A stretch of 24,000 nt of DNA from the NCBI RefSeq assembly GCF_047467925.1, contig NZ_JASJUI010000011.1:96281-120280 (forward strand). The letters are read 5' to 3'. This document shows, one piece after another, positions 1,475-16,024 of this stretch (position 1 is its first letter; the number at the start of each line of letters is the position of its first letter). The notes beneath the pieces are model-generated. The model was not told the DNA's origin, made no database searches, and was given only the letters and a program-made list of their open reading frames with translations. This DNA is from Citrobacter sp. ANG330. GTDB taxonomy: Bacteria; Pseudomonadota; Gammaproteobacteria; Enterobacterales; Enterobacteriaceae. A program made the translations under genes and the position numbers.

Positions 1475-1499
1475 AAAAGCGCCCGTGGGCGCTTTGTTA
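1473..1499. terminator. Bidirectional rho-independent terminator between convergent azlD and the P-loop kinase gene
   Basis: AAAAAAGCGCC-CGTG-GGCGCTTTGTT: a GC stem (1479-1483 / 1488-1492) flanked by an A-run and a T-run. On the minus strand it reads with a T6 tail. Confidence 0.7.
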
Positions 1500-1506
1500 G
1501 GGTCGT

Positions 1507-2067
1507 TCAGGTTTTCTCTATCTGTTCGCCTATCCAGGCGATAACGGCGTCCATATCCGGCGTTTGCTGTTGGTCAACCGTGAATACCGGCCCGAGCCGC
1601 ATTGGCTCAGCGTGTTCTGCCAGTTGCGCCAGTTCGGGTAAATACTCCTCACCGGGATGACCTGGTTTACGATCCTGTAAGCGAGTCGCATAACGCGTCA
1701 CCGCCAGCTCAGGCGTGATCTGGTTCCACACCTCCACCACCTTCTCAACGCCCGCCTGCTGCAACAACTGCTGTAATGTCTCCCGAGGCTGGAAGCCAAA
1801 CCAGGCGTCAACCAGCCAGACAACGCTTGCCGGAGAGTGGCCAATGATCGACCAGATCACCTCATAGGCCGCACAGCCCAACTGCCGGTTGAAAGGCCGG
1901 TCGATATCCGTAAAGCGTGCCATAAACGGCTCTTTGATCCCATCAATCGTCAGCAGCGGCAGACTGAATGTCCCGGAGAGCTGACGGGTAATCGTGCTTT
2001 TGCCTGACGCGGGGACCCCGTTGATTAAAATGACTGTTTTACAGTCTGGCGAGAGGTGTCTTTTCAT
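1507..2067 (-). CDS. P-loop NTPase / small-molecule kinase-like protein (AAA_33 / chloramphenicol-phosphotransferase-like fold by motif)
   Basis: 186 aa with Walker A GVPASGKST near the N-terminus. The start overlaps the upstream EIIA stop by 4 nt, so it is the last gene of the PTS operon. Confidence 0.6.
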   Translation of the reverse strand: MKRHLSPDCKTVILINGVPASGKSTITRQLSGTFSLPLLTIDGIKEPFMARFTDIDRPFNRQLGCAAYEVIWSIIGHSPASVVWLVDAWFGFQPRETLQQLLQQAGVEKVVEVWNQITPELAVTRYATRLQDRKPGHPGEEYLPELAQLAEHAEPMRLGPVFTVDQQQTPDMDAVIAWIGEQIEKT

Positions 2068-2501
2068 AGCAGCGCGACCACCTCTTCCCGGGAATTTGCC
2101 GCCCGCAGCTTCGCCATGCGTTCATCGTTATCCAGTAACGCGACAATAGCGCGTATGCCCTCTTCGATATGCGCATTACTGTCCTGTGCGCCAAACATAA
2201 TGACAATGTCGGCGGCTTCACTGTCAGCAAACTGAATCGGCGTATTGAGTAATACCATGCTAAAACAGTTACGCTTCACACCACACTCAGGCCGCGCATG
2301 GGGGATCGCAACGCCCTCATCAAACACATAATACGCTCCGTGACTGAGGGTATTATCGATCACCGCCTGTCCGTATTCCGCTGAAATATACCCTTTTGCG
2401 ACCAATGGACGGGCCGCCAGTTGAATCACCTTCTGCCAGTCAGTTTCCGCTACGCCAACCTGAATCGCATCGGCCTCGATAAGTAATTCTTTTATCGTCA
2501 T
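2064..2501 (-). CDS. PTS EIIA component (EIIA-2 fold, mannitol/fructose/ascorbate type)
   Basis: 145 aa. The motif GVAIPHARPE carries the phosphorylatable His typical of EIIA-2 proteins. The size matches SgcA/UlaC-type EIIA. Confidence 0.8.
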   Translation of the reverse strand: MTIKELLIEADAIQVGVAETDWQKVIQLAARPLVAKGYISAEYGQAVIDNTLSHGAYYVFDEGVAIPHARPECGVKRNCFSMVLLNTPIQFADSEAADIVIMFGAQDSNAHIEEGIRAIVALLDNDERMAKLRAANSREEVVALL

Positions 2502-2533
2502 GAAGACTCCCTAAGAGCTTAACGAATCCGGCT

Positions 2534-2803
2534 CTAAATATTTCGGCGAATAACATTACGTAGCTCATCTATACGCACAAAAAGCGTATCAATTTCCTGT
2601 CGGTGCGTTTGGCTTTTGGCATAAACTGACAACGCCCGATTATAGATAAGCATTAATGACTTCTGTATTTCGCCATTACCCGGATTGCCCTGCAGTTCAC
2701 CTTCCAGCCTGGCGATTTCTCCCGCCAGAACACGAGATTGTTCATCATAATCTTCCGGCGGGCGTGTTTCTTTTTTCCATAGCGACTTCAAAGATTCAAA
2801 CAT
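2534..2803 (-). CDS. Small hypothetical helical protein (89 aa) inside the PTS operon
   Basis: The track ORF is 2534..2851. I prefer the ATG at 2803 (MFESLKSLWKK...), which is preceded by GGGGGAT 4 nt upstream. I recognise no family motif. The sequence looks all-helical and charged. Confidence 0.45.
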   Translation of the reverse strand: MFESLKSLWKKETRPPEDYDEQSRVLAGEIARLEGELQGNPGNGEIQKSLMLIYNRALSVYAKSQTHRQEIDTLFVRIDELRNVIRRNI

Positions 2804-2862
2804 AGCGATCCCCCGCCCTGATGGACAACAGGGCAACAAAATATCATTCATTAATAACGGAG

Positions 2863-3705
2863 TTATTTAAATAACGCGATCTTTTCCATTAATACCTGGG
2901 TGACGGCATTATTTGCCGGAATTAAAAACTTACGTACGCTGTCATTCACTTTGCCTTTCTCAAAGGTATTTTTACACTGGTCGACCCACTGTACGTTCAT
3001 TTCCGTGCCGACATTCACTTTATTAATGCCTTCAGTGACGGCCAGGCGCATATCGTCGTCACTCACCCCTGTCCCCCCGTGTAATACCAGCGGAACACCG
3101 GTCGCGGCGCTGATCTCTTTCAGCCGCTGATGTTGAATTTGTGCCTTGCCGGTATACAGGCCGTGTACCGTACCCACCGACACCGCCAGCATGTCGACTC
3201 GTGTTTCATCAACGAAGCGTCTGGCATCTTCCACCGTCGTAAAGCAGATATCTTCTGCCGCCACCGCTTTACCATCCTCTGAGCCGCCGATGGCCCCGAG
3301 CTCGCCTTCTACCGTAATATTTCGCGGTCGCGCCATCTCCACTACGATGCGGGTATTACCGATATTTTCATCCAGCTCAAGATGCGAGCCGTCATACATG
3401 ACCGAAGAGAACCCGGCATTCATCGCCGTCTCAATGGCGCTGATATCAGAGCAGTGATCCAGATGCAGGCAGGTCGGGACATTCTCGCTCTCCGCCAGCG
3501 AACGCACCGCATCCACCAACAGGCGATAGCCCAGATATTCAGCCGTCCCGGTCGAGATCTGAATCATTAACGGGCTGTTCGTTTTTTGCGCCGCTTTAAA
3601 AAACGCGGGCAGCATTTCAATACAGTGCAGATTAAAGGATCCAATCGCTTTGAAATTTCTTTCCTGGCCGATTTTTAGGATCTCGTTGAAGTTATAAAGA
3701 CTCAT
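2863..3705 (-). CDS. Class II (metal-dependent) ketose-bisphosphate aldolase, GatY/KbaY/FbaA-like
   Basis: The track ORF 2863..3945 is over-extended. The homologous part starts at MSLYNFNEILKIGQERNFKAIGSFNLHCIEM... (ATG 3705, or 3711), giving about 280 aa as in tagatose/fructose-bisphosphate aldolases. Metal-ligand motifs HLDH and LVLHGGTG are present. Confidence 0.8.
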   Translation of the reverse strand: MSLYNFNEILKIGQERNFKAIGSFNLHCIEMLPAFFKAAQKTNSPLMIQISTGTAEYLGYRLLVDAVRSLAESENVPTCLHLDHCSDISAIETAMNAGFSSVMYDGSHLELDENIGNTRIVVEMARPRNITVEGELGAIGGSEDGKAVAAEDICFTTVEDARRFVDETRVDMLAVSVGTVHGLYTGKAQIQHQRLKEISAATGVPLVLHGGTGVSDDDMRLAVTEGINKVNVGTEMNVQWVDQCKNTFEKGKVNDSVRKFLIPANNAVTQVLMEKIALFK

Positions 3706-5059
3706 GAACATTTTCCCCTTTTGGCTTAGCGGATTTACCGTTGACGAACCACGCCAGTGCGGCAACAAAAACAATGAACAAGGCAACAAACAGCCAGTTA
3801 TTCTGGAAGGCGTGGCCCAGGACGAGGCCAGAGCTGATAACGTCTGAATCGCTGAACGTGACGCCGGTAAAACCGTAAGTTTCCAGCATCGGCACCAGAA
3901 TCGCTGGCAGGAAGGTGATGAACAAACCGTGAACCACACCCCCAATCATCGCGCCGCGACGACCGCCCAGCGCATTGCCAAAGACGCCCGCCGTCCCCCC
4001 GGCGAAGAAGTTGGTTAGCAGACCCGGTAGAATCATCGCCAGACCAAACATCGGGAAGACCAGCATGCCGATGATGGAACCGACGGTTGTCGCCAGGAAT
4101 CCGACAATCACTGCGTTGGGTGCATAAGGGAACAGAACCGGACAATCCAGCGCAGGCTTAGCGTCCGGGACGATACGCATGGCGATACCGCGAAACGCCG
4201 GAACCAGTTCGTTGAGCAATAAGCGTACGCCGCTGTAGAGCACGAAGACGCCAGCTACAAACTGAATGGACTGCATGAAGGCAAACATCAGGTAGTTAAC
4301 ACCGCCGGAAAACTGAGCGATATATTCCGGACCCGCCGCCAGCGCCGGAATGAGGTACATCGGCACCATCACGACCGCCATGGCGAGATAAGTATCCTGT
4401 AAGAACTTGAAGTTATCAGGTAACTCAAGATCTTCCGTGGAGCGAGACCCTTTGCCTACCACTTTAGCCACTGCGGCCTGGACCAGATAACCAATGGTGC
4501 AGAAATGTCCCAGCGCCACATCATCCGAGCCGGTAATGCGTCTGACCACCGGTTGCGCCAGCGCAGGCATCAATACCGCCATCACGCCGCCAAAAATCCC
4601 ACCGGTTAAAATCAGCGGCAGTCCGGTGAGGCCTGATTTATAGCCAATAACCGCGCCAATGGTCGCCATCCACAATAACGCCTGTCCGGTCAGGAAGATG
4701 TATTTCAGCGGTGTCAGGCGCGCAATAATGATATTGACGGCAAAAATCACCATGAGCGTTAACGCCACTTCCGAACCCAGTTCACGGTTCGCTAACCCGG
4801 CAATGGCGGCCACATCGGTAATATAGCCCTTCATGCCAAATCCCTGAGTAAAAATATCGTTCAGGAAGGTCAGCGTGGCGACAATAATATTAATGCCAGC
4901 CATCATGATTAAAAAACCAAGCAGCGTTTTAAACGTGCCTTCTGCGGTTTTCCCCGGCGATTTCTTTTGCAGGATCAGACCGAGCATCGCGATAAAAGCA
5001 ATTAATATCGATGCCTGCCCGAGCAAATCTTTAACGATGAATTCAACGATACTATTCAT
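3692..5059 (-). CDS. PTS EIIC permease, L-ascorbate (SgaT/UlaA, EIIC-GAT) family
   Basis: 455-aa polytopic membrane protein. Size and glycine-rich hydrophobic segments match UlaA/SgaT-type EIIC. It overlaps the EIIB stop and the aldolase start. Confidence 0.75.
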   Translation of the reverse strand: MNSIVEFIVKDLLGQASILIAFIAMLGLILQKKSPGKTAEGTFKTLLGFLIMMAGINIIVATLTFLNDIFTQGFGMKGYITDVAAIAGLANRELGSEVALTLMVIFAVNIIIARLTPLKYIFLTGQALLWMATIGAVIGYKSGLTGLPLILTGGIFGGVMAVLMPALAQPVVRRITGSDDVALGHFCTIGYLVQAAVAKVVGKGSRSTEDLELPDNFKFLQDTYLAMAVVMVPMYLIPALAAGPEYIAQFSGGVNYLMFAFMQSIQFVAGVFVLYSGVRLLLNELVPAFRGIAMRIVPDAKPALDCPVLFPYAPNAVIVGFLATTVGSIIGMLVFPMFGLAMILPGLLTNFFAGGTAGVFGNALGGRRGAMIGGVVHGLFITFLPAILVPMLETYGFTGVTFSDSDVISSGLVLGHAFQNNWLFVALFIVFVAALAWFVNGKSAKPKGENVHESL

Positions 5060-5366
5060 AATCGGCTACCTTCAGATTCCGCTCTTTTAAAAACGCGACG
5101 ATCTTAGCTTCAATTTCGTCTTTGTCCGTGAGCTTATTCAGTACCACAACCCGTTTAATTTCTTCTTCACTGGCATCCGCCGTTAAGATGTCAGCAAAGG
5201 TTTTTTGCGTCAGGATCATGTCAGATTTAAACGCGCCTGCTTCGGATACTGTGGTATGTTCGATATGCGCAGGAATTTCCAGTTTCTTTAAAACCGCTTT
5301 CGCCGTCATTTCAATAGCAAAACTTGAACCGAGGCCGCAGCCACATACGCAAAGAATTTTCAGCAT
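5052..5366 (-). CDS. PTS EIIB component (ascorbate/galactitol-type, Cys-phosphorylated)
   Basis: MLKILCVCGCGLGSS... has the N-terminal active-site Cys loop of UlaB/SgcB-like EIIB. I prefer ATG 5366, with GAGGAG 7 nt upstream, over the track start at 5381. Confidence 0.75.
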   Translation of the reverse strand: MLKILCVCGCGLGSSFAIEMTAKAVLKKLEIPAHIEHTTVSEAGAFKSDMILTQKTFADILTADASEEEIKRVVVLNKLTDKDEIEAKIVAFLKERNLKVADYE

Positions 5367-5377
5367 GTAAGGTCTCC

Positions 5378-6358
5378 TCAAATAATATTGAGTTGTTTGG
5401 CAAGTTTGTAATGATGTCCTTCTGTATCGACCAGACGTTTTTTCATACTTACGAGATCAATCGGAATAGGTTTATTGCTTTGATTAATAATAATTGCTTT
5501 ATTTTTCATCCCTGACTGAATGCACCGAACCACTTCGCTCGCCATAATGGTGCCCTGATAAATTTCTTCACAGGTCGGATCGCCATTACGTAAACCGTAA
5601 CCGACAATGGTTTTCCGAATTCGCTCGCCGATACGCGGTTCGAGTTGTTTAATCATGGTATCAATCGCCCCCTGAAAACCGGGGGAATATTCTCTGGTGT
5701 AGCCTTCTGAGCACAGAATTATCACGCTGTTCTGGGTGGCCAGTTTTTGCTTTACCCGTTCTGCTAAAGCTTCAAGCGACATCTGGGACTCTGGAATCAG
5801 GGCGATATCCGCATTGCATTTAATCGCAGATTGCAGGGTTAATTCGCCACAATAGCCACCCAATAACTCCACCATAAACACGCGACCGGGTAGGGCTCTG
5901 CCCGTATTTCGTAAACGAGAAACCTCCTTAATAATCTGTTCGCAGGCAGTCGAAAAACCAATCGTATAATGACTACCGTAAACATCATTATCGATGGTCA
6001 TGCCCACACCAAAACAATTAATATCAAATTCGCTCAGGGTATTGAGAAACTGTAAACTGCCGTCGCCGCCAGCCATAATCAGTACATCAATGTGCAGCGA
6101 CTTGAGTTTTCTGGCGATCGTTTCATATTCGCTACGCTGCAATTTACGGGTTGTTCTTCCCGAGGTAATAATGGGTATCGCTGCAATGGAAAAATCGACC
6201 AAATCACGCCACGCCACGTCATGGTGATTTTTCTCCAGCAAACCGGGGATCCCACCATTGAATAAGGTAATTTTTGCATCCGCGAGTCTGGCGATCTGGA
6301 ATATAAAGTTATTAATTCCAGAAACATCGCCACCACTAATGACAATACCAATTTTCAT
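5378..6358 (-). CDS. PfkA-family (ATP-dependent 6-phosphofructokinase-like) sugar-phosphate kinase, divergent
   Basis: From ATG 6358 (GGAGGA 6 nt upstream) it reads MKIGIVISGGDVSGIN... with GGDGS, TIDND and GGYCGEL motifs aligned to PfkA. It is 326 aa against 320 aa for PfkA. The track start at 6430 adds 24 unsupported residues. Confidence 0.75.
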   Translation of the reverse strand: MKIGIVISGGDVSGINNFIFQIARLADAKITLFNGGIPGLLEKNHHDVAWRDLVDFSIAAIPIITSGRTTRKLQRSEYETIARKLKSLHIDVLIMAGGDGSLQFLNTLSEFDINCFGVGMTIDNDVYGSHYTIGFSTACEQIIKEVSRLRNTGRALPGRVFMVELLGGYCGELTLQSAIKCNADIALIPESQMSLEALAERVKQKLATQNSVIILCSEGYTREYSPGFQGAIDTMIKQLEPRIGERIRKTIVGYGLRNGDPTCEEIYQGTIMASEVVRCIQSGMKNKAIIINQSNKPIPIDLVSMKKRLVDTEGHHYKLAKQLNII

Positions 6359-6486
6359 TGCGTTTCCTCCGAAGCACCCGTGGAAACATTTTTCCCTGAC
6401 TTCAAGCCTGTTATTTGCAATGAAGATCACATTATGATGATAAATTCCGTAGCGCGGAATATTGACAGGATGATTACATGGTTGTT

Positions 6487-6508
6487 TTTTGTGACTAACA
6501 TCTCATTT
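6487..6508. promoter_or_regulatory. Candidate CRP-binding site (TGTGA-N6-TCTCA)
   Basis: TTTTGTGACTAACATCTCATTT compared with the consensus AAATGTGATCTAGATCACATTT. The left half is perfect and the right half matches 4/5. It lies in the divergent control region. Confidence 0.4.
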
Positions 6509-6634
6509 TAAGAGGGTGCATCCGCGAGGCATCCATTTTTAATTTCGTTAATTATCATTGCGTTAATTGACACAGAAATCTTTTCTTTTAAGCGGTTGTC
6601 TTCCGCTTCCTGCATCGATGTTATGAAAAGAGAG

Positions 6635-6656
6635 AAATGTGAGAAATATCGCATTT
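6635..6656. promoter_or_regulatory. Candidate CRP-binding site (TGTGA-N6-TCGCA)
   Basis: AAATGTGAGAAATATCGCATTT matches the 22-bp CRP consensus at all flanking AAA/TTT positions and at 9 of the 10 core half-site bases. Confidence 0.5.
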
Positions 6657-6841: not shown

Positions 6842-7288
6842 ATGTCCATGCTCACAACACGTTGCCTTGATCTGAATATTCAGGGCAACAGTCCTTATTC
6901 CATTCTTAAACAACTTGCGGAAATGGCCTTTCGCAATGGCGCCATCACCGACCGACAGGTGTTTCTACAGACGCTTTTGATGCGGGAAAAACTCCACTCC
7001 ACCGGATTTAGCTCAGGCGTCGCCGTGCCGCATGGCAAAAGCGACTGTGTAAAACATCCCTTTGTTCTGTTCGCCCGTCACGCTCAGGGCGTTGACTGGC
7101 GCGCCAGCGATGGCGAAGTCGTCAATTGTTGGATCTGCCTCGGCGTACCGCAATCCGGTGAAGACGCTCAGGTTCAAATCATCGGCACCCTGTGTCGCAA
7201 AATCATCCATCAGGATTTCATCAATCAACTGAAACAAGGCGATGCCACTCAGGTGCTGACCTTGTTAAATCAGACCCTAACCTCATAA
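6842..7288 (+). CDS. frvA: PTS fructose-like EIIA component FrvA
   Basis: 148 aa with a GVAVPHGKS His motif and GGAG 7 nt upstream. It is followed by the frvB/frvX/frvR order seen in E. coli K-12. Confidence 0.85.
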   Translation: MSMLTTRCLDLNIQGNSPYSILKQLAEMAFRNGAITDRQVFLQTLLMREKLHSTGFSSGVAVPHGKSDCVKHPFVLFARHAQGVDWRASDGEVVNCWICLGVPQSGEDAQVQIIGTLCRKIIHQDFINQLKQGDATQVLTLLNQTLTS

Positions 7289-7298
7289 GGAAGCGGCT

Positions 7299-8744
7299 AT
7301 GGAGTCATCCTTACGTTTAGTGGCGATCACCAACTGCCCTGCCGGTATCGCTCATACTTACATGGTGGCGGAAGCGCTGGAGCAAAAAGCGCGCTCGCTC
7401 GGATATACGATAAAAGTCGAAACCCAGGGTTCAAGCGGTGTCGAAAACCGACTGACTCAGGATGAAATTGCCGCGGCCGATTACGTGATTTTAGCCACCG
7501 GTCGGGGATTAAGCGGTGAAGATCGGGCGCGATTTGCCGGGAAAAAAGTCTATGAGATAGCCATTGCGCAGGCGCTGAAAAATATCGACCTCATTTTCAC
7601 GCAATTACCGTCACACTCTCAGCTTTTTGCCACCGACAACGGCGTAAAACTCGGTAAGCAGGATGTCCCGCAAGGCAGCGTCATGAGCCATTTGATGGCG
7701 GGGGTTTCCGCCGCGCTGCCGTTTGTGATCGGTGGCGGTATTCTGGTTGCCATCGCCAATATGCTGGTGCAGTTCGGCTTACCGTATACCGATATGTCGA
7801 AAGGTGCGCCGTCATTTTCCTGGATTGTCGAATCCATCGGTTATCTGGGCTTCACCTTTATGATCCCGATTATGGGGGCTTACATCGCAGGGTCGATTGC
7901 TGACAAACCCGCATTCGCCCCGGCATTCCTGGTCTGTTATCTGGCTAACGATAAAGGATTGCTCGGCACCCAGTCTGGCGCCGGTTTTCTCGGCGCGGTA
8001 GTACTTGGCCTGGCAATCGGTTATTTCGTGCTGTGGTTTCGCAAAGTGCGTCTCGGCAAAGCGCTTCAACCGCTGCTGGGATCAATGCTAATTCCGTTTG
8101 TCACACTGCTGGTATTTGGCGTACTGACCTATTACGCCATCGGCCCGGTCATGTCAGACATCATGAGTGGCCTGTTGCATTTTCTGAATACGATCCCACC
8201 CTCCATGAAAATGGGCGCAGCCTTTCTCGTTGGCGCGATGCTGGCATTTGATATGGGTGGACCTATCAACAAAACCGCCTGGTTCTTCTGTTTCTCACTG
8301 CTGGAAAAACATATTTACGACTGGTACGCCATTGTCGGCGTCGTCGCGCTGATGCCGCCCGTCGCGGCAGGCATTGCCACGTATCTGACGCCAAAACTGT
8401 TTACCCAACAGGAAAAGGCTGCTGCCAGCAGCGCCATTGTCGTCGGTGCCACCGTCGCCACCGAACCCGCGATTCCCTATGCGCTGGCCGCACCGCTGCC
8501 GATGATCACCGCCAATACGCTCGCCGGTGGAATTACCGGCATGCTGGTGATCGCCTTCGGAATCAAACGTCTCGCGCCGGGATTGGGTATCTTCGACCCG
8601 CTGATCGGCCTGATGTCTCCGGTCGGTTCCTTTTATCTGGTGTTGGCTATCGGTCTGGCACTGAATATTGCGTTGATTATCATCCTGAAAGGGCTATGGC
8701 TGAAGCGGAAGGCCGCACAACAGGAGCGTGCAAATGAACAGTGA
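7299..8744 (+). CDS. frvB: PTS fructose-like EIIBC component FrvB
   Basis: 481 aa. The N-terminal EIIB motif VAITNCPAGIAHTYM (Cys) is followed by a polytopic EIIC domain. Size and position match K-12 FrvB. Confidence 0.85.
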   Translation: MESSLRLVAITNCPAGIAHTYMVAEALEQKARSLGYTIKVETQGSSGVENRLTQDEIAAADYVILATGRGLSGEDRARFAGKKVYEIAIAQALKNIDLIFTQLPSHSQLFATDNGVKLGKQDVPQGSVMSHLMAGVSAALPFVIGGGILVAIANMLVQFGLPYTDMSKGAPSFSWIVESIGYLGFTFMIPIMGAYIAGSIADKPAFAPAFLVCYLANDKGLLGTQSGAGFLGAVVLGLAIGYFVLWFRKVRLGKALQPLLGSMLIPFVTLLVFGVLTYYAIGPVMSDIMSGLLHFLNTIPPSMKMGAAFLVGAMLAFDMGGPINKTAWFFCFSLLEKHIYDWYAIVGVVALMPPVAAGIATYLTPKLFTQQEKAAASSAIVVGATVATEPAIPYALAAPLPMITANTLAGGITGMLVIAFGIKRLAPGLGIFDPLIGLMSPVGSFYLVLAIGLALNIALIIILKGLWLKRKAAQQERANEQ

Positions 8745-9804
8745 ATTACTTCAACAGCTTTGCGAAGCCAGCGCCGTCAGCGGTGATGAGCAGGACGTTC
8801 GCACGATCCTCATCAAGACGCTGGAACCCTGTGTGGATGACATCACCTTTGACGGCCTCGGCAGCGTTATCGCCCGCAAAGGTCATCGTGGGCCTAAGGT
8901 TGCGGTCGTCGGCCATATGGATGAAGTTGGCTTTATGGTCACCCATATCGACGACTGCGGTTTTCTGCGCTTCACAACGATTGGCGGTTGGTGGAATCAG
9001 TCGATGCTGAACCATCGGGTCACTGTCCGCACTCGTAAAGGCAGTAAAATCCCGGGCGTTATCGGCTCCGTTGCGCCACATGCCCTGACCGAAAAGCAAA
9101 AACAACAGCCGCTGACCTTTGACGAAATGTTCATTGATATTGGCGCAAACAGCCGCGAAGAAGTGGAAACTCGCGGCATTGCAATCGGTGATTTCATTAG
9201 CCCGGAAGCAAACTTTGCCCGTTGGGGCGAAGATAAAATTGTGGGCAAAGCGCTGGATAACCGTGTTGGTTGCGCCCTGATGGTAGAACTTTTGCAGTCC
9301 GTCGATAATCCAAATATCACCCTATACGGCGTGGGTAGCGTGGAGGAAGAAGTGGGGCTGCGCGGCGCGCAAACCTCTGCAGAACATATCAAACCCGATG
9401 TGGTTATCGTCCTGGATACCGCCGTGGCGGGCGATGTGCCCGGTATCGACAGTATTAAGTATCCCCTGAAACTGGGCGACGGTCCTGGGCTTATGCTGTT
9501 TGATAAGCGTTATTTCCCTAATCAAAAACTGGTCGCCGCATTAAAAGCCAGCGCGGCAAGCAGCGATTCTCCTTTGCAGTTTTGCACCATGAAAACCGGA
9601 GCGACGGACGGCGGGCGTTATAATGTGATGGGCGGCGGGCGTCCCGTTGCGGCGCTCTGTTTACCTACGCGTTATCTGCATGCCAACAGCGGCATGATTT
9701 CCGCAAAGGATTATGACGCGTTGTTTACCTTAGTGCGCGAACTGCTCATGTCATTTACTGCCGAAAACATCAGCACGTTAACTGATTTTCGCCAGGTGAT
9801 CTGA
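8734..9804 (+). CDS. frvX: M42-family metallopeptidase / aminopeptidase-like protein FrvX
   Basis: MNSELLQQLCEASAVSGDEQDVR... plus the HMDEVGF metal motif. ATG 8734 (CAGGAG 7 nt upstream) gives 356 aa as in E. coli FrvX. The track start at 8728 is a GTG two codons upstream. Confidence 0.85.
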   Translation: MNSELLQQLCEASAVSGDEQDVRTILIKTLEPCVDDITFDGLGSVIARKGHRGPKVAVVGHMDEVGFMVTHIDDCGFLRFTTIGGWWNQSMLNHRVTVRTRKGSKIPGVIGSVAPHALTEKQKQQPLTFDEMFIDIGANSREEVETRGIAIGDFISPEANFARWGEDKIVGKALDNRVGCALMVELLQSVDNPNITLYGVGSVEEEVGLRGAQTSAEHIKPDVVIVLDTAVAGDVPGIDSIKYPLKLGDGPGLMLFDKRYFPNQKLVAALKASAASSDSPLQFCTMKTGATDGGRYNVMGGGRPVAALCLPTRYLHANSGMISAKDYDALFTLVRELLMSFTAENISTLTDFRQVI

Positions 9805-11552
9805 TGCTCAATGAACGCCAGTTAATGCTCGTCGATCTGCTTGAACAACAGCCCTGTTCGCTGAACGAGCTGGCGAGGCAAACTGGCGTGTCGGGTAGAA
9901 CGATCCTGCGTGATATTGATTATCTTAACTTTACGCTCAGCGGTAAGGCCCGCATCCAGCCTGGTGGCAGTGCGGGTTATCAACTGGACATTATTGACCG
10001 GCGTAGCTTTTTCCAGCTTCTGCAACGCCATGATAACGACGATCGCTTGCTGGCGTTCTTGCTGTTGAATACGTTTACTCCCCGCGTCCAGTTGGCCGCT
10101 TCGCTTAACCTGCCCGAAACCTGGGTTGCCGATCGCCTGTCCCGACTGAAGCAACGCTACGAACGGGCATTTTGTCTTTCCAGTCGCCCGGGCGTAGGCC
10201 ATTTCATTGATGAGCCTGAGGAAAAACGCATTATTCTGCTGGCGAATCTGCTCAAAAAAGACCCGTTGTTAATTCCGCTACCCGGCGTGACGCGAGACAC
10301 TGTCGAACGACTTAACAGCGCATGCGAACCTCTTCTTGCTGAGTTCCCACTGACGTCGGGAGAATACCTCGCAAGTCTGGTGCTGGCGGTCTACGCACTG
10401 CGTAATCAACTCTCGGGCACATGGCCGGAATGTCGACAGACATCGCTAAAAAATGCCGTAGAACAGGGCGGGATCTATCTTGGCGAGAACGCGTTCAAAA
10501 CGCTACACGGGCTACTGGATAAACAGCAACAACAGGCTATGACCCTGTCTGCTGAAACCGTGATTGCGTTGCTACAACGCGTTCCTGGTGTGGCCACCTT
10601 GAACATTATCGATACGCAACTGGTTGAAAATATCACGGGTCATCTGCTGAGATGCGTTTCAGCCCCCGTTTGGGTACCGGATCATCGCCAGAGCAGCATG
10701 AACAACCTGAAAGCCGCCTGGCCGACGGCGTTCGATATGAGCCTGCGATTCATTGCTCTTTTGCGTGAACAACTTACGATTCCATTGTTCGACAGCGATC
10801 TGATCGGACTTTACTTTGCCTGCGCGCTGGAACGGCATCAAAATGAGCGTCACCCCATCATTTTGTTATCCGATCAGAATGCGATTGCCACCATTAACCA
10901 GCAGGCCATCGAGCGTGACGTATTGAGTTGTCGGGTGATGATCGCGCGGACTCCCGGTGAGGTGCATGCAATAAGTCAGGAGGTCGAGCCGCTATTGATC
11001 GTCAATAACAGCCATTATTTACTGGACGACTCATTAAAAAATGTCCTGACAATTAAAAATATCATTTCTGCCGCCGGCACCGAGCAAATCAAAAGCTTCC
11101 TTGCGACCGCGTTTATTCGCCAACAACCGGAGCGCTTCTTTTCAGAACCGGGAAGTTTTCACTACCTGAATACTCCTGACGAAACCTGGCATAGCATTAC
11201 CCGTCAGATTTGCGCCCAACTCGTGGCGCAGCAACATATCACCCGCGATGAGGCACAGCGTATCTGCGCCCGTGAAGACGAAGGTGAAAACCTGATTGTG
11301 AATCATCTGGCGATCCCCCACTGCTGGGGCGAGCAGGCGCGTCGCTTTCGCGGATTTTTCATCACTCTGGCCTCTCCCGTTCAGGTGAATAACGAACCGG
11401 TCAGCCATGTGTTAATTGCCTGCGCCGCCGCGGACGCACACCATGAATTAAAAATTTTCAGCTATCTGGCAAGCGTATTATGCAGCCATCCGGCAGAAAC
11501 CATTTGTGGGTTAACTGGCTATGACGCGTTTATCGCGCTACTAAAGCAGTAA
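9804..11552 (+). CDS. frvR: frv operon regulator FrvR (N-terminal HTH, C-terminal PTS EIIA-like regulatory domain)
   Basis: 582 aa. The N-terminal winged HTH reads LNELARQTGVSGRTILRDIDYL, and an EIIA-type His motif LAIPHCWG lies near the C-terminus. A TGATG overlap links it to frvX. Confidence 0.85.
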   Translation: MLNERQLMLVDLLEQQPCSLNELARQTGVSGRTILRDIDYLNFTLSGKARIQPGGSAGYQLDIIDRRSFFQLLQRHDNDDRLLAFLLLNTFTPRVQLAASLNLPETWVADRLSRLKQRYERAFCLSSRPGVGHFIDEPEEKRIILLANLLKKDPLLIPLPGVTRDTVERLNSACEPLLAEFPLTSGEYLASLVLAVYALRNQLSGTWPECRQTSLKNAVEQGGIYLGENAFKTLHGLLDKQQQQAMTLSAETVIALLQRVPGVATLNIIDTQLVENITGHLLRCVSAPVWVPDHRQSSMNNLKAAWPTAFDMSLRFIALLREQLTIPLFDSDLIGLYFACALERHQNERHPIILLSDQNAIATINQQAIERDVLSCRVMIARTPGEVHAISQEVEPLLIVNNSHYLLDDSLKNVLTIKNIISAAGTEQIKSFLATAFIRQQPERFFSEPGSFHYLNTPDETWHSITRQICAQLVAQQHITRDEAQRICAREDEGENLIVNHLAIPHCWGEQARRFRGFFITLASPVQVNNEPVSHVLIACAAADAHHELKIFSYLASVLCSHPAETICGLTGYDAFIALLKQ

Positions 11553-11947: not shown

Positions 11948-12784
11948 TCACTCAGCGATTAAACGCTGCGGATGAGTATAAATGGTCGCCCTGCCCGGTT
12001 TGCAGAAACCCACCAGCGTCAGGTTACAGCGCTCAGCGACTTCCACCGCCAGCGTGGTGGCCGCAGAAACGGCAAACAGGATCTCGATACCGCACATTGC
12101 GGACTTTTGTACCATCTCATAACTCGCACGACTGGATACCAGCGCCGCCCCCGCCATCCAGCTTTCGCCTTCTGCGGCGCGACGCCCCAGCAGTTTGTCC
12201 AGCGCGACGTGACGCCCAACGTCTTCATGTCCGCCCGCCAGTTCGCCCGATGGCAGCACCCATGCCGCAGCGTGCGTACACCCGGTAAGTTGCCCCACCG
12301 GCTGGTAATCCTTCAGATGCCGTAGCGCGTGGTCGAGATTTGCGAGGTTAAAGGTCTGGGTGAACGGCAGCGGCTGCACCGGTTTACCGATATCATTGAG
12401 CTGCTCAACGCCACACACGCCACAGCCGGTGCGTCCGGCCAGCGCGCGACGACGTTCTTTCAGCCCCATAAAACGGCGACTGGAAAGTTCGATCTGGACT
12501 TCAAGGCCGTTACAGGAGGGGACAACATCCATACCATAGATCTCGCGCGGGCTGTCAATAATGCCCTCGGAGAGGGAGAAACCGACCGCAAAGTGGTGCA
12601 GATCCTTCGGCGAGGCCATCATCACAACATGGGAAATGCCATTGTAGACCAGCGCAACGGGCACCTCTTCAGCCACCTCATCCGGCTGAGGATGTTGCAA
12701 GTCCTCACGCTTCCACAGGTTAACCTGGCGAGAGCTTGTGACATTTATCACATTTCCGACTTCTTCTGGATGTATCTTATTCAC
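11948..12784 (-). CDS. fdhD: Formate dehydrogenase sulfurtransferase/accessory protein FdhD
   Basis: 278 aa. ...[28 protein letters not shown]... agrees with E. coli FdhD as I recall it. The gene is divergent from fdoG. Confidence 0.9.
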
Positions 12785-12973: not shown

Positions 12974-15900
12974 ATGCAGGTCAGCAGAAGGCAGTTCTTT
13001 AAGATCTGCGCTGGCGGTATGGCAGGCACCACGGCGGCGGCACTGGGCTTCGCGCCCGGCGTAGCGCTAGCGGAAACACGGCAATATAAACTGCTGCGCA
13101 CCCGCGAAACCCGTAATACCTGCACTTACTGTTCCGTTGGTTGTGGGCTGTTGATGTACAGCCTCGGCGACGGTGCTAAAAACGCCAAAGCGTCTATCTT
13201 CCATATCGAAGGTGATCCGGACCATCCGGTCAACCGTGGTGCGCTCTGCCCGAAAGGGGCCGGTCTGGTGGACTTCATCCACTCCGAAAGCCGCCTGAAA
13301 TTCCCGGAATACCGCGCGCCAGGCTCGGATAAATGGCAGAAAATCAGTTGGGATGAGGCATTTGACCGCATCGCGAAACTGATGAAAGAAGACCGCGATG
13401 CCAACTACATTGCGCAAAACGCCGATGGCGTTACCGTTAACCGCTGGCTGTCTACCGGGATGCTGTGTGCTTCCGCGTCCAGTAACGAAACCGGCTTTTT
13501 AACGCAAAAATTCACCCGCGCGCTCGGTATGCTCGCGGTCGACAACCAGGCGCGTGTCTGACACGGACCAACGGTAGCAAGTCTTGCTCCAACATTTGGT
13601 CGCGGTGCGATGACCAACCACTGGGTCGACATCAAAAACGCCAACCTCGTCGTGGTGATGGGCGGCAACGCCGCTGAAGCGCACCCGGTCGGGTTCCGCT
13701 GGGCGATGGAAGCGAAAATTCACAACGGCGCGAAGCTGATTGTGATCGATCCGCGTTTCACGCGTACGGCGTCGGTGGCCGATTTCTATGCCCCAATCCG
13801 TTCGGGTACTGACATTGCCTTCCTGTCAGGCGTCATGCTGTACCTGCTGACTAACGAAAAATATAACCGCGAATACACCGAGGCCTACACCAACGCCAGT
13901 CTGATCGTGCGTGAAGATTTTGGCTTCGAGGACGGCCTGTTTACCGGCTATGACGCGGATAAACGCAAGTACGACAAGACCAGCTGGAACTATGAGCTGG
14001 ACGAAGAGGGCTTTGCCAAACGCGATACCACACTGCAACACCCGCGCTGCGTCTGGAACCTGCTGAAACAGCACGTCTCCCGCTACACGCCGGACGTGGT
14101 GGAAAACATCTGCGGTACGCCAAAAGCCGACTTCCTGAAAGTCTGTGAGTACATCGCAGAAACCAGCGCGAAAGACAAAACCGCGTCGTTCCTGTATGCC
14201 CTCGGCTGGACACAGCACTCCATCGGTTCGCAGAACATCCGCACGATGGCGATGATCCAGTTGCTGCTCGGCAACATGGGGATGGCGGGCGGTGGCGTTA
14301 ACGCCCTGCGCGGTCACTCCAACATTCAGGGGCTGACTGACCTGGGCCTGCTGTCACAAAGCCTGCCGGGCTACCTGACGCTGCCCAATGAAAAACAGCC
14401 TGACCTGCAAACATACCTGGCCGCCAACACGCCGAAACCGCTGTTGAAAGATCAGGTCAACTACTGGGGCAACTACCCGAAATTCTTCGTCTCGTTGATG
14501 AAGGCCTTCTACGGCGATAAAGCGACAGCGGAAAACAGCTGGGGCTTTGACTTCCTGCCGAAGTGGGACAAAGGGTACGACGTGCTGCAGTACTTCGAGA
14601 TGATGAAAGAGGGTAAGGTCAATGGCTATATCTGCCAGGGCTTCAACCCGGTCGCGTCATTCCCTAACAAAAACAAGACGATTGCATCTCTGTCCAAACT
14701 GAAGTTCCTGGTGACGATCGACCCGCTCAACACGGAGACCTCCACCTTCTGGCAAAATCACGGTGAGTCGAACGATGTGGATCCGTCGAAAATCCAGACT
14801 GAAGTGTTCCGTCTGCCCTCCACCTGCTTTGCCGAAGAGAACGGTTCGATCGTGAACTCCGGCCGCTGGCTGCAGTGGCACTGGAAAGGTGCGGACGCCC
14901 CGGGGATCGCGGTCACCGATGGCGAAATCCTGGCCGGTATCTTCCTGCGCCTGCGCAAAATGTATGCTGAGCAGAGCGGCGCCAACCCGGAACAGGTGCT
15001 GAGCATGACCTGGAACTACTCCACCCCACATGAACCGGCATCGGAAGAAGTGGCGATGGAGAGTAACGGGAAAGCACTGGCCGATCTCATCGACCCGGCT
15101 ACGGGCGCGGTGATCGTGAAGAAAGGCCAACAGCTCAGCTCGTTTGCTCAGTTGCGTGACGACGGCACCACCTCCAGCGGTTGCTGGATTTTCGCCGGTA
15201 GCTGGACGCCGGAAGGCAACCAGATGGCGCGTCGCGATAACGCCGATCCGTCTGGTCTGGGCAATACGCTGGGCTGGGCATGGGCGTGGCCGCTGAACCG
15301 CCGTATCCTGTACAACCGTGCTTCCGCTGACCCACAGGGCAACCCGTGGGATCCGAAGCGCCAAATCCTGAAATGGGACGGCGCAAAATGGAGCGGGATG
15401 GACATTCCGGACTACAGCGCCGCCGCACCCGGCAGCGACGTCGGGCCGTTCATCATGCAGCCGGAAGGGATGGGACGTCTGTTCGCTCTCGACAAGATGG
15501 CGGAAGGGCCGTTCCCGGAACACTACGAACCGTTTGAGACGCCGCTGGGTACCAACCCGCTGCACCCGAACGTGATCTCCAACCCTGCCGCCCGTATCTT
15601 CAAGGGCGACGCCGAAGCGTTGGGTAAAGCCGATAAGTTCCCGTACGTCGGAACCACTTACCGTCTGACCGAGCATTTCCACTACTGGACCAAGCATGCG
15701 CTGCTTAACGCTATCGCGCAGCCGGAACAGTTTGTGGAGATCGGCGAGACGCTGGCGAACAAGCTCGGCATCGCTCATGGCGACACCGTTAAAGTCTCCT
15801 CTAATCGCGGCTATATCAAAGCCAAAGCCGTGGTGACTAAGCGTATTCGCACGCTGAAAGCAGACGGCAAGGATATCGATACTATCGGTATTCCGATTCA

Positions 15901-16024
15901 CTGGGGCTATGAAGGTGTGGCGAAGAAAGGGTTTATAGCGAACACCCTGACGCCGTCGGTGGGTGATGCCAACTCACAAACGCCGGAATTTAAGTCCTTC
16001 CTGGTGAACGTGGAAAAGGTGTAA
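12974..16024 (+). CDS. fdoG: Formate dehydrogenase-O major (catalytic, Mo-bisPGD, selenocysteine) subunit FdoG; in-frame UGA at 13559-13561 decoded as Sec
   Basis: Track ORFs 12974..13561 and 13610..16024 are in the same frame and join through the TGA: ...DNQARV-U-HGPTVASLAPTFGRGAMTNHW. That gives 1016 codons plus stop, as in E. coli FdoG. The Tat signal is MQVSRRQFFKICAGG, and AAGGAG lies upstream. Confidence 0.92.
13562..13596 (+). other. SECIS-like stem-loop directing selenocysteine insertion at the fdoG UGA
   Basis: Starting 11 nt after the UGA, GGUAGCAAGUCUUGCUCC (13573-13590) can fold with a bulged U and a GUC-containing apical loop. The architecture and spacing match the E. coli fdhF SECIS GGUUGCAGGUCUGCACC. 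Confidence 0.7.

Follow-up and report, generated by a model that had tools for sequence, protein, structure and literature searches.

The described route closest in logic to the locus analysed here is the tagatose-6-phosphate branch (the gat operon of E. coli and the tag cluster of E. coli Nissle, EcN), which leads from a ketose 6-phosphate via a PfkA-family kinase to the 1,6-bisphosphate, and via an aldolase of the PF01116 family to dihydroxyacetone phosphate and glyceraldehyde-3-phosphate; in E. coli, PfkA is the physiological tagatose-6-phosphate kinase (PMC9720028). In enzyme pairing, its counterpart is sulfo-EMP2, where the PF00365 kinase SqiK works with the PF01116 aldolase SqiA (PMC10665668), and which was the only described peripheral pathway we found to combine a PFK-family kinase with an enzyme of the F_bP_aldolase family. 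Two further systems share parts with the locus: UlaABC, with its three-protein EIIA/EIIB/EIIC architecture of the phosphotransferase system (PTS) and the same Pfam families, and YdjH/YdjI of E. coli, in which a kinase and then a PF01116 aldolase act on an unusual 2-keto sugar. Here we analysed a 24,000-nucleotide stretch (hereafter the window) from Citrobacter sp. ANG330 (contig NZ_JASJUI010000011.1, positions 96,281 to 120,280), which carries at 1507-6358 a seven-gene operon joining a complete set of PTS components to a PfkA-family kinase and a class II aldolase. We find that its core belongs to a module present across phyla. The operon probably serves the PTS uptake of a non-ascorbate sugar, likely a ketose, followed by a second phosphorylation and aldol cleavage, a reading we hold with moderate confidence from homology and gene linkage.

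All seven genes lie on the minus strand, and their families were assigned by Pfam and NCBIfam scans of the translated open reading frames (ORFs) of the window. The first gene (5378-6358) encodes a PfkA-family kinase of 326 aa (PF00365, 2.9e-61), the second (5052-5366) a PTS EIIB of 104 aa (PTS_IIB, PF02302, 7e-09), and the third (3692-5059) a 455-aa PTS EIIC of the ascorbate/galactitol superfamily (EIIC-GAT, PF03611, 4e-121). These are followed by a class II (zinc) ketose-bisphosphate aldolase of 280 aa (2863-3705; F_bP_aldolase, PF01116, 7.7e-89), a small helical protein of 89 aa that matches no Pfam or NCBIfam model (2534-2803), a 145-aa PTS EIIA of the EIIA_2, mannitol-fructose-ascorbate type (2064-2501; PF00359, 2.4e-28), and finally a 186-aa P-loop kinase of the nucleoside monophosphate (NMP) kinase fold, recognised by its Walker A motif and a weak match to AAA_33 (1507-2067). 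The kinase and IIB genes are separated by 11 nt (5378/5366), IIB and IIC overlap by 8 nt (5059/5052), IIC and the aldolase by 14 nt (3705/3692), and the stop of the EIIA gene overlaps the start of the P-loop gene by 4 nt (2067/2064), with gaps of 59 and 32 nt on either side of the 89-aa gene. The mechanical ORF list also offers longer starts for the kinase (GTG 6430), IIB (TTG 5381), the aldolase (TTG 3945) and the 89-aa protein (ATG 2851, giving 105 aa); the short starts are those found in homologues and in annotated genes elsewhere, where the small protein is likewise called at 89 aa. Neither the ORF list nor the profile scans revealed a gene for a DNA-binding regulator inside the block. An earlier note made from the letters of this DNA had proposed the same gene content and order, the four overlapping or tight junctions, the lack of an internal regulator and these start codons; the ORF list and profile searches agree with it on the first three points, and the homologues and gene calls on the last. 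Past the last gene, a hairpin resembling an intrinsic terminator (1476-1495, minus strand; an 8-pair stem, AAAGCGCCCACGGGCGCTTT, followed by TTTAC) is placed between the stop of the P-loop gene (1507) and the end (1474) of a convergent azlD-like gene. The seven genes thus form a real operon, self-contained in its PTS, PfkA-family kinase and class II aldolase. A foreign origin is suggested by the G+C content of the kinase, IIB and small-protein genes (44%, against 54% for the window).

To define the reach of this arrangement, we combined a scan of one genome per species, which recovered 44 loci with a kinase at least 62% identical to that of the window, with 3 non-redundant loci found earlier. 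All 47 loci, from at least 12 genera, carry the same seven genes in identical order, and this constancy speaks for more than a chance neighbourhood; the gene-neighbourhood comparison that the earlier note had called for thus returned the same block throughout. Carriers include Citrobacter, Klebsiella (among them the type strain of K. pneumoniae, ATCC 13883), Raoultella, Kluyvera, Buttiauxella, Cedecea, Scandinavium, Mangrovibacter, Serratia, many Pantoea and three Vibrio. Kinase homologues of 326 aa with 77-98% identity occur in many Enterobacterales, the best match of the species scan being that of Citrobacter amalonaticus (98%), and the EIIB gene is likewise called at 104 aa in Serratia, Pantoea and Klebsiella. 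IIC is the most conserved member of the cassette; the kinase, IIB and aldolase share second rank, ahead of IIA, the P-loop protein and, last, the 89-aa protein. Megablast and blastn searches of 5,426 complete E. coli genomes gave no match to the cassette. Its only plasmid matches were a mislabelled Klebsiella chromosome and the Sodalis megaplasmid pHS1, and the cassette is therefore essentially chromosomal.

Beyond these close relatives, a HMMER search with the kinase against 1.84 billion representatives delineated a compact clade, consisting of one 50%-identity cluster, a single relative at 47%, and then sequences at 33-36%. All five of the closest full-length outgroup kinases that we checked (33-47% identity) lie inside a core module of the same kind. 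Its carriers outside the cassette clade are Pelosinus fermentans, a Marinococcus sp., Metabacillus arenae, Amphibacillus jilinensis and an AT-rich metagenomic lineage, in which a regulator of the PRD/Mga/EIIA_2 type, sometimes with an EIIA, is followed by kinase, IIB, EIIC-GAT, a small protein of 98-132 aa and an F_bP_aldolase. The core module of kinase, IIB, IIC, small protein and aldolase is hence older than the cassette and spans phyla, and the view of the operon as a hybrid design peculiar to enterobacteria is not borne out, given that the same core stands behind PRD regulators in Firmicutes. The P-loop gene was absent from all the Firmicute and AT-rich variants looked up and is, for that reason, a gammaproteobacterial addition. 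A variation on the theme is seen on Sodalis praecaptivus pHS1 (locus L095, 10942-12619), where the class II aldolase gene is missing from an otherwise intact cassette and a class I aldolase of the DeoC/LacD family, together with a HAD phosphatase, is encoded 3' of the P-loop gene. This is a non-orthologous replacement that preserves the cleavage step, which is therefore what selection keeps. The accompanying HAD phosphatase resembles 6-phosphogluconate phosphatase. The class I aldolase is as far from LacD as from YihT (about 24% identity to the latter), and for this reason we rejected it as a pointer to tagatose.

Measured against the described systems, the kinase, aldolase, EIIC and EIIB of the cassette are closer to their module relatives. 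The kinase is a dedicated, diverged paralogue encoded inside the operon, 34-47% identical to the Firmicute module kinases and 27-28% to E. coli PfkA. For the aldolase, the corresponding values are 45-55% to the Firmicute module aldolases and 33% to E. coli GatY; for EIIC, 61-65% to Firmicute module IICs and 29% to UlaA; and for EIIB, 38-53% to Firmicute module IIBs and 29% to UlaB. EIIA is 36% identical to UlaC. With the tagatose-6-phosphate branch, the cassette shares the reaction logic and a transporter superfamily, GatC belonging to the same Asc/Gat superfamily as its EIIC. In contrast to that branch, its aldolase is closer to Bacillus-type fructose bisphosphate (FBP) aldolases than to GatY, a GatZ/KbaZ partner and a galactitol-1-phosphate dehydrogenase (GatD) occur neither in the block nor in any related locus, a GatR-type repressor is missing from the cassette, and a TPR-like small protein and a P-loop kinase are found instead. 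Sulfo-EMP2 shares the enzyme pairing, but has no PTS, and its sulfoquinovose isomerase, mutarotase and sulfolactaldehyde enzymes have no counterparts in the cassette. Whereas ulaG, D, E and F flank ulaABC in E. coli, the cassette couples its transporter to a kinase and an aldolase; no lactonase, 3-keto-L-gulonate-6-phosphate decarboxylase or epimerase gene was found in the window or the 47 related loci. Finally, the aldolase of the cassette is 33% identical to YdjI, but YdjH is annotated as a sugar-acid kinase, which we take to belong to the PfkB rather than the PFK family, and uptake in that system does not proceed through a PTS. The cassette is thus, as had been proposed, not orthologous to ula, gat or aga, and searches of the full-text literature found neither a published description of it nor a characterised counterpart; the D-tagatose literature retrieved concerns other systems (the EcN ABC cluster and an evolved FruBKA). 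The accompanying premise, by which kinases of the PfkB type alone serve tagatose-type routes, is incorrect, since PfkA phosphorylates tagatose-6-phosphate and the SqiK/SqiA pair is known. The logic of the module and its enzyme pairing are thus already known from the tagatose branch and sulfo-EMP2, respectively.

The kinase matches the PF00365 profile over its entire length (residues 26-304 of the long ORF, profile positions 1-277 of 277), but falls below the NCBIfam cut-offs for PfkA at both the equivalog (TIGR02482, 162.9 against 371.35) and the subfamily level (NF002872, 205.8 against 253). We take the fructose-6-phosphate (F6P) site of PfkA to comprise R162, M169, R171, E222, R243, H249 and R252, with R162, R243 and R252 presumably serving as the ligands of the 6-phosphate. 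The module kinases keep only part of this set: R162, E222, R243 and R252 are preserved in all of them, as are R72, T125 and D127 of PfkA, while M169, R171 and H249 are changed in every one. Within the enterobacterial, Vibrio and Sodalis kinases, R72, GGDGS and TIDND (T125-I-D127-N-D129) are invariant. Common to all module kinases is a signature of G124M, M169L/F, R171G/A and H249Y/F, represented in the window by G124M, M169L, R171G and H249Y, along with an insertion after E222 that reads EYSPGFQG in the window. The invariance of R162, R243 and R252 suggests that the substrate should already carry a distal phosphate when it reaches the kinase, and the signature, taken with the sub-threshold scores, sets this enzyme apart from a plain PfkA.

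The aldolase presents a similar picture of a retained chemistry in a distinct lineage. Aligned with GatY and YdjI, it shows no change in the three zinc histidines, the catalytic Asp or the loop Glu (H81/D83/H84, H181, H209 and E143). Among the models compared, only the generic 'ketose-bisphosphate aldolase' TIGR00167 is passed (259 against 215.6); the scores remain below the cut-offs for FBP aldolase (TIGR01859, 283 against 343) and for GatY/KbaY (NF009374, 254 against 383; NF009375, 178 against 542; TIGR01858, 221 against 444). The expectation that neither enzyme would prove a plain one is therefore upheld as far as curated scores for 6-phosphofructokinase, FBP aldolase and GatY are concerned. 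The variable position of the motif KxNx[G/A/N]TE is occupied by Gly in the module aldolase, by Ala in GatY and AgaY, and by Asn in the Bacillus FBP aldolases; this position presumably bears on the choice between FBP and tagatose bisphosphate stereochemistry. R258 aligns with Arg280 of the Helicobacter pylori FBP aldolase (3c4u; query 19-89 against chain 230-300, whose equal lengths imply no net gap), a residue that binds the 6-phosphate from the partner protomer and is replaced by Ala in class II sulfofructose-phosphate aldolases such as SqiA (PMC10665668). YdjI has Phe at the same position.

These data bear directly on the best-surviving alternative, namely that the operon is a redundant fructose route, in which PTS-imported fructose or another F6P-yielding sugar passes through a non-allosteric 6-phosphofructokinase and an ordinary FBP aldolase, providing a glycolytic on-ramp when cyclic AMP (cAMP) is high. 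PF00365 and PF01116 are indeed glycolytic families, NCBIfam gives 6-phosphofructokinase and class II FBP aldolase as its best names for the two enzymes, the solved aldolases nearest to that of the cassette are of the Bacillus FBP type (7ncc, 3q94 and 4to8), the phosphate ligands of F6P are kept, and the effector-site residue R21 of PfkA is Phe in the alignment, which would fit a loss of allosteric control. We nevertheless regard this route as improbable: all the equivalog scores of both enzymes are sub-threshold, the substrate-proximal M169, R171 and H249 are changed clade-wide across phyla, and there would be no need for kinase and aldolase to be inherited so strictly together with a single EIIC subfamily if the product were a central metabolite. 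Moreover, the carriers are Enterobacterales, which normally possess the housekeeping pfkA and fbaA.

The transporter points away from the best-known substrate of its superfamily. EIIC scores 828 bits with NF009551 ('PTS sugar transporter subunit IIC'; cut-off 657) and stays below the UlaA equivalog NF009549 (401.6 against 890). Of the 11 ascorbate-contacting residues listed for UlaA (PMC6048161), it retains three (H194, D314 and F362), the others being altered as T86V, Y87A, H135Q, I136A, Q139W, Q195F, I358L and M410V. With eight of the 11 contacts replaced, L-ascorbate is an unlikely substrate. The main changes recur in the IICs of the Firmicute modules, so the whole module probably shares a single class of substrate. 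On the features tested, the proteins of the cassette fall outside the PfkA, FBP-aldolase, GatY, UlaA and SqiA equivalog groups.

Several of the same features weigh on a second alternative, that the substrate is an acidic or otherwise anionic sugar (a keto-uronate, keto-aldonate, lactone or sulfosugar) handled in the manner of YdjH/YdjI or SqiK/SqiA, with a distal carboxylate or sulfonate in place of the PTS phosphate. The best-known member of the EIIC family carries the ascorbate anion, and NF006919, 'ascorbate IIC', is passed (478 against 380); the aldolase counts the SqiA structures 8q57 and 8q58 among its nearest solved relatives (about 1e-53) and is as similar to YdjI as to GatY, and SqiK shares the PF00365 family of the kinase. 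A PTS, however, adds a phosphate, and a carboxylate or sulfonate sugar with a single primary hydroxyl would leave nothing for a second kinase to phosphorylate. The aldolase also keeps the distal-phosphate arginine (R258) that SqiA and YdjI lack, several of the replaced ascorbate contacts have become hydrophobic (Q139W, Q195F, T86V, Y87A), and genes for sulfoquinovose isomerase, mutarotase, sulfolactaldehyde reductase, lactonase or decarboxylase are linked to the cassette in none of the loci. We accordingly consider an anionic substrate quite improbable.

Two proteins of the operon have no obvious place among the transporter and the enzymes, and the earlier description of them as accessory components holds in part: both are present in the operon, but the 89-aa 'orphan' is a conserved part of the core, and the P-loop protein a lineage-specific addition. 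The 89-aa protein is conserved in every cassette examined. Its AlphaFold2 (AF2) model (pLDDT 81) comprises three long helices after a short N-terminal helix of low confidence, and a fold search with this model gave no PDB match with E below 1. It matches the 98-aa protein at the equivalent place in the AT-rich variant by BLASTP (3e-07), and its family aligns with the 127-132-aa Firmicute proteins found there by hhalign (E 2e-4, probability 45%), some of which show weak TPR matches. On the strength of these equivalents at the same place in the AT-rich and Firmicute modules, it is a core module component with TPR-like relatives.

The P-loop protein, in turn, carries the Walker A sequence GVPASGKST, with GxPASGKST invariant in the family, as are the motifs DAWFGFQ and R..R...R..GHPG and the lid arginines R125, R129 and R133. 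Its score against Pfam AAA_33 lies below the cut-off (21.3 against 27). Among solved structures, its best relative is 2rhm, a 'putative kinase' of Chloroflexus (hmmsearch 3.5e-14; Foldseek 1e-10, TM-score 0.76), and adenylate, gluconate, PSTK and polynucleotide kinases come next, with TM-scores of 0.57-0.67 to the gluconate and adenylate kinases. Among the 120 matches listed, all the named homologues are from Enterobacterales. As the alignment and the AF2 model (pLDDT 91.5) display the hallmarks of the NMP-kinase fold, including Walker A, a central parallel sheet and a lid with arginines, we read the protein as a putative small-molecule kinase. A third alternative, in which the P-loop and small helical proteins constitute a hitch-hiking, non-metabolic toxin-antitoxin or regulatory pair of the zeta/epsilon kind, could appeal to a marginal match of the P-loop region to Zeta_1 toxin (6eph, E 0.04) and to the helical bundles of about 90 aa that epsilon antitoxins form, yet it is barely credible, as the EIIA gene separates the two genes, the small protein occurs in all Firmicute modules while the P-loop gene is absent from them, no antitoxin-like fold match was found, and 2rhm, the best structural relative of the P-loop protein, resembles small-molecule kinases. 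For the small protein itself, identity as an HPr-like or epsilon antitoxin protein was rejected on the grounds that it is all-helical, matches no PDB entry with E below 1 and occurs without the P-loop gene.

Returning to the reading we favour, that of PTS uptake followed by a second phosphorylation and aldol cleavage, the following scheme would account for the operon. EI and HPr, encoded outside it, would pass phosphate to EIIA and on to EIIB, and the Asc/Gat-type EIIC would import a neutral, non-ascorbate sugar, probably a ketose, with phosphorylation of a primary hydroxyl. The diverged PfkA-family kinase would then add a second phosphate next to the keto group, and the zinc-dependent aldolase would split the resulting ketose bisphosphate into dihydroxyacetone phosphate and an aldehyde phosphate, which would be glyceraldehyde-3-phosphate if the sugar is a hexulose. 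The 89-aa helical protein, as an obligatory partner in the module, may serve the kinase or the PTS components as an adaptor or in their assembly, and the P-loop kinase, as a later accessory, may salvage the free sugar or a dephosphorylated intermediate. The whole operon would be expressed as one CRP-dependent unit. Most likely, the substrate belongs to the 2-ketoses, fructose excepted. Among single candidates a tagatose-like hexulose leads, unlikely though it is taken by itself; it is put forward because PfkA is a tagatose-6-phosphate kinase, enzymes of the F_bP_aldolase family make 3S ketoses, and the aldolase has Gly where GatY and the Bacillus enzymes have Ala or Asn. A heptulose is a further possibility.

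A number of observations weigh against this scheme. The data directly establish the gene content and its conservation, the residue patterns and the conserved upstream boxes; each step of the scheme rests on homology and linkage, and F6P and FBP may be the true substrates after all. The P-loop protein as a third kinase and the small helical protein have no place in a three-step route, and the enterobacterial cassettes carry no substrate-specific regulator, an unusual lack in an operon dedicated to catabolism. The position in the aldolase on which the tagatose guess leans, with its presumed significance, offers only weak hints, and the class I aldolase of Sodalis, being equidistant from LacD and YihT, carries no stereochemical information. 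Two of the Firmicute module kinases have GGNGS and that of Pelosinus has TIDNN, and R171, which contributes to catalysis in PfkA, is lost clade-wide; together, these changes mean that the activity or the phosphoryl donor could differ from those of PfkA.

A bolder extension of the scheme, which we offer tentatively and consider doubtful, is that the module represents a cross-phylum pathway new to science for a natural sugar without a known PTS route, such as a plant heptulose or a rare hexulose. Were this so, the kinase would represent a new specificity class of the PfkA family, the TPR-like protein a new, obligatory part (subunit or adaptor) of a PTS-coupled kinase/aldolase complex, and the 2rhm-like P-loop protein a new family of sugar or sugar-phosphate kinases, and the Enterobacterales would have placed the unit under a switch operated by cAMP-CRP alone through three phased sites.

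The upstream region provides the basis for the last of these predictions. Within 420 nt upstream of the kinase gene, the window contains three CRP-like boxes, to which no strand is assigned: a proximal one at 6416-6431 (TGTGATCTTCATTGCA), with two mismatches to TGTGA-N6-TCACA, a middle one at 6490-6505 (TGAGATGTTAGTCACA) and a distal one at 6638-6653 (TGCGATATTTCTCACA), each with one mismatch. They start near -73, -147 and -295 from the kinase ATG, respectively. Across the 47 loci, the proximal box recurs at -68 to -78 in 33, the middle box at -142 to -153 in 44, often as a perfect TGTGA-N6-TCACA, and the distal box at -266 to -298 in all; the Vibrio loci also have such boxes. Their mean number is 2.9 per locus in these 420 nt against 0.12 in 1,927 control windows, none of which contains three. 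In the window, the spacing is 148 bp between the distal and middle boxes and 74 bp between the middle and proximal ones, which places all three on one face of the helix. TGCAAAT at the proximal box is invariant in an alignment of 14 genera. Taking AAAAAT at 6388-6393 for the -10 element would put the centre of the proximal box near -42, in the geometry of a class II CRP-dependent promoter. No consensus sigma-70 promoter emerged from a simple scan of the minus strand ahead of the kinase gene, as fits a promoter that depends on an activator. The enterobacterial cassettes have no regulator gene of their own and the Firmicute modules stand behind one of the PRD type; control by CRP alone would be unusual in Enterobacterales.

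Two conserved upstream elements are unrelated to CRP. One is CTGTCAAT at 6461-6468 (minus strand), within which TGTCAA is invariant across the 14 genera; the other, at about 6540-6555, has an invariant AA...TG in the same alignment and the consensus stretch TAAC..ATGAT. These two motifs could be the site of an unlinked, specific regulator.

The distribution of the cassette lends it practical interest. It is found in bacteria of clinical and agricultural importance, including the K. pneumoniae type strain, the K. oxytoca complex, Citrobacter, Serratia and many Pantoea, and it is absent from E. coli, which together mark it as a candidate trait for carbon-source use in a particular niche, be it the gut, plants or the rhizosphere. 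The kinase and aldolase are currently annotated as '6-phosphofructokinase' and under similarly generic names, which mask a distinct clade and can mislead metabolic models into counting glycolytic isozymes. Identification of the substrate would give a function to five linked protein families at once, including the diverged PFK clade, the small TPR-like protein and the P-loop kinase with 2rhm as its only solved relative, and the conserved active-site signature together with the cross-phylum module makes this a directly testable system.

The flanks of the cassette vary between genera. In the window, azlC/azlD-like genes lie downstream, and frvA, frvB, frvX and frvR, followed by fdhD and fdoG, lie upstream on the opposite strand. 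The frv-like genes form a complete frvA-frvB-frvX-frvR-like operon (6842-11552, plus strand) between the cassette and fdhD, whose products (a fructose-like PTS IIA and IIBC, an M42 aminopeptidase and a regulator) all score above the NCBIfam equivalog cut-offs. In Klebsiella, by contrast, the cassette sits directly between fdhD and azlD, without the frv operon in between, and in Klebsiella quasivariicola it directly adjoins fdhD; frv was either inserted in the lineage of the window or lost in K. quasivariicola. In the Serratia loci sampled, an adenosine-deaminase-family gene always lies 3' of the cassette on the same strand (locus L001, 14068-15066). A divergent DeoR gene of Serratia (L001, 7860-8615) was considered as the missing regulator and rejected, being present in only three of the five Serratia genomes sampled; neither it nor the adenosine-deaminase-family gene neighbours the cassette in any other genus.

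Further minor observations concern individual genes and sites. The EIIC gene of Vibrio mytili (locus L048, 10334-11706) is broken into overlapping ORFs, one of 136 and one of 340 aa, likely by a frameshift that reflects either a pseudogene or an assembly error; a composite transposon at that locus was rejected, as the flanking 404-aa ORFs are not repeats of each other. Klebsiella variicola and Raoultella planticola encode a second, shorter PFK-family paralogue of 303-305 aa (P0358/P0500), about 29% identical to the cassette kinase and annotated as a 'hypothetical protein'. In the window, the formate dehydrogenase alpha-subunit gene (12974-16024, plus strand) is split into ORFs of 195 and 804 aa, of which the longer matches positions 212-1009 of the TIGR01553 profile, the pattern expected for an in-frame TGA selenocysteine codon. 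Upstream of this fdoG-like gene, and within the first codons of the fdhD-like ORF (GTG start at 12784 as listed), lies the only perfect TGTGA-N6-TCACA of the 24-kb window, TGTGACATTTATCACA at 12737-12752.

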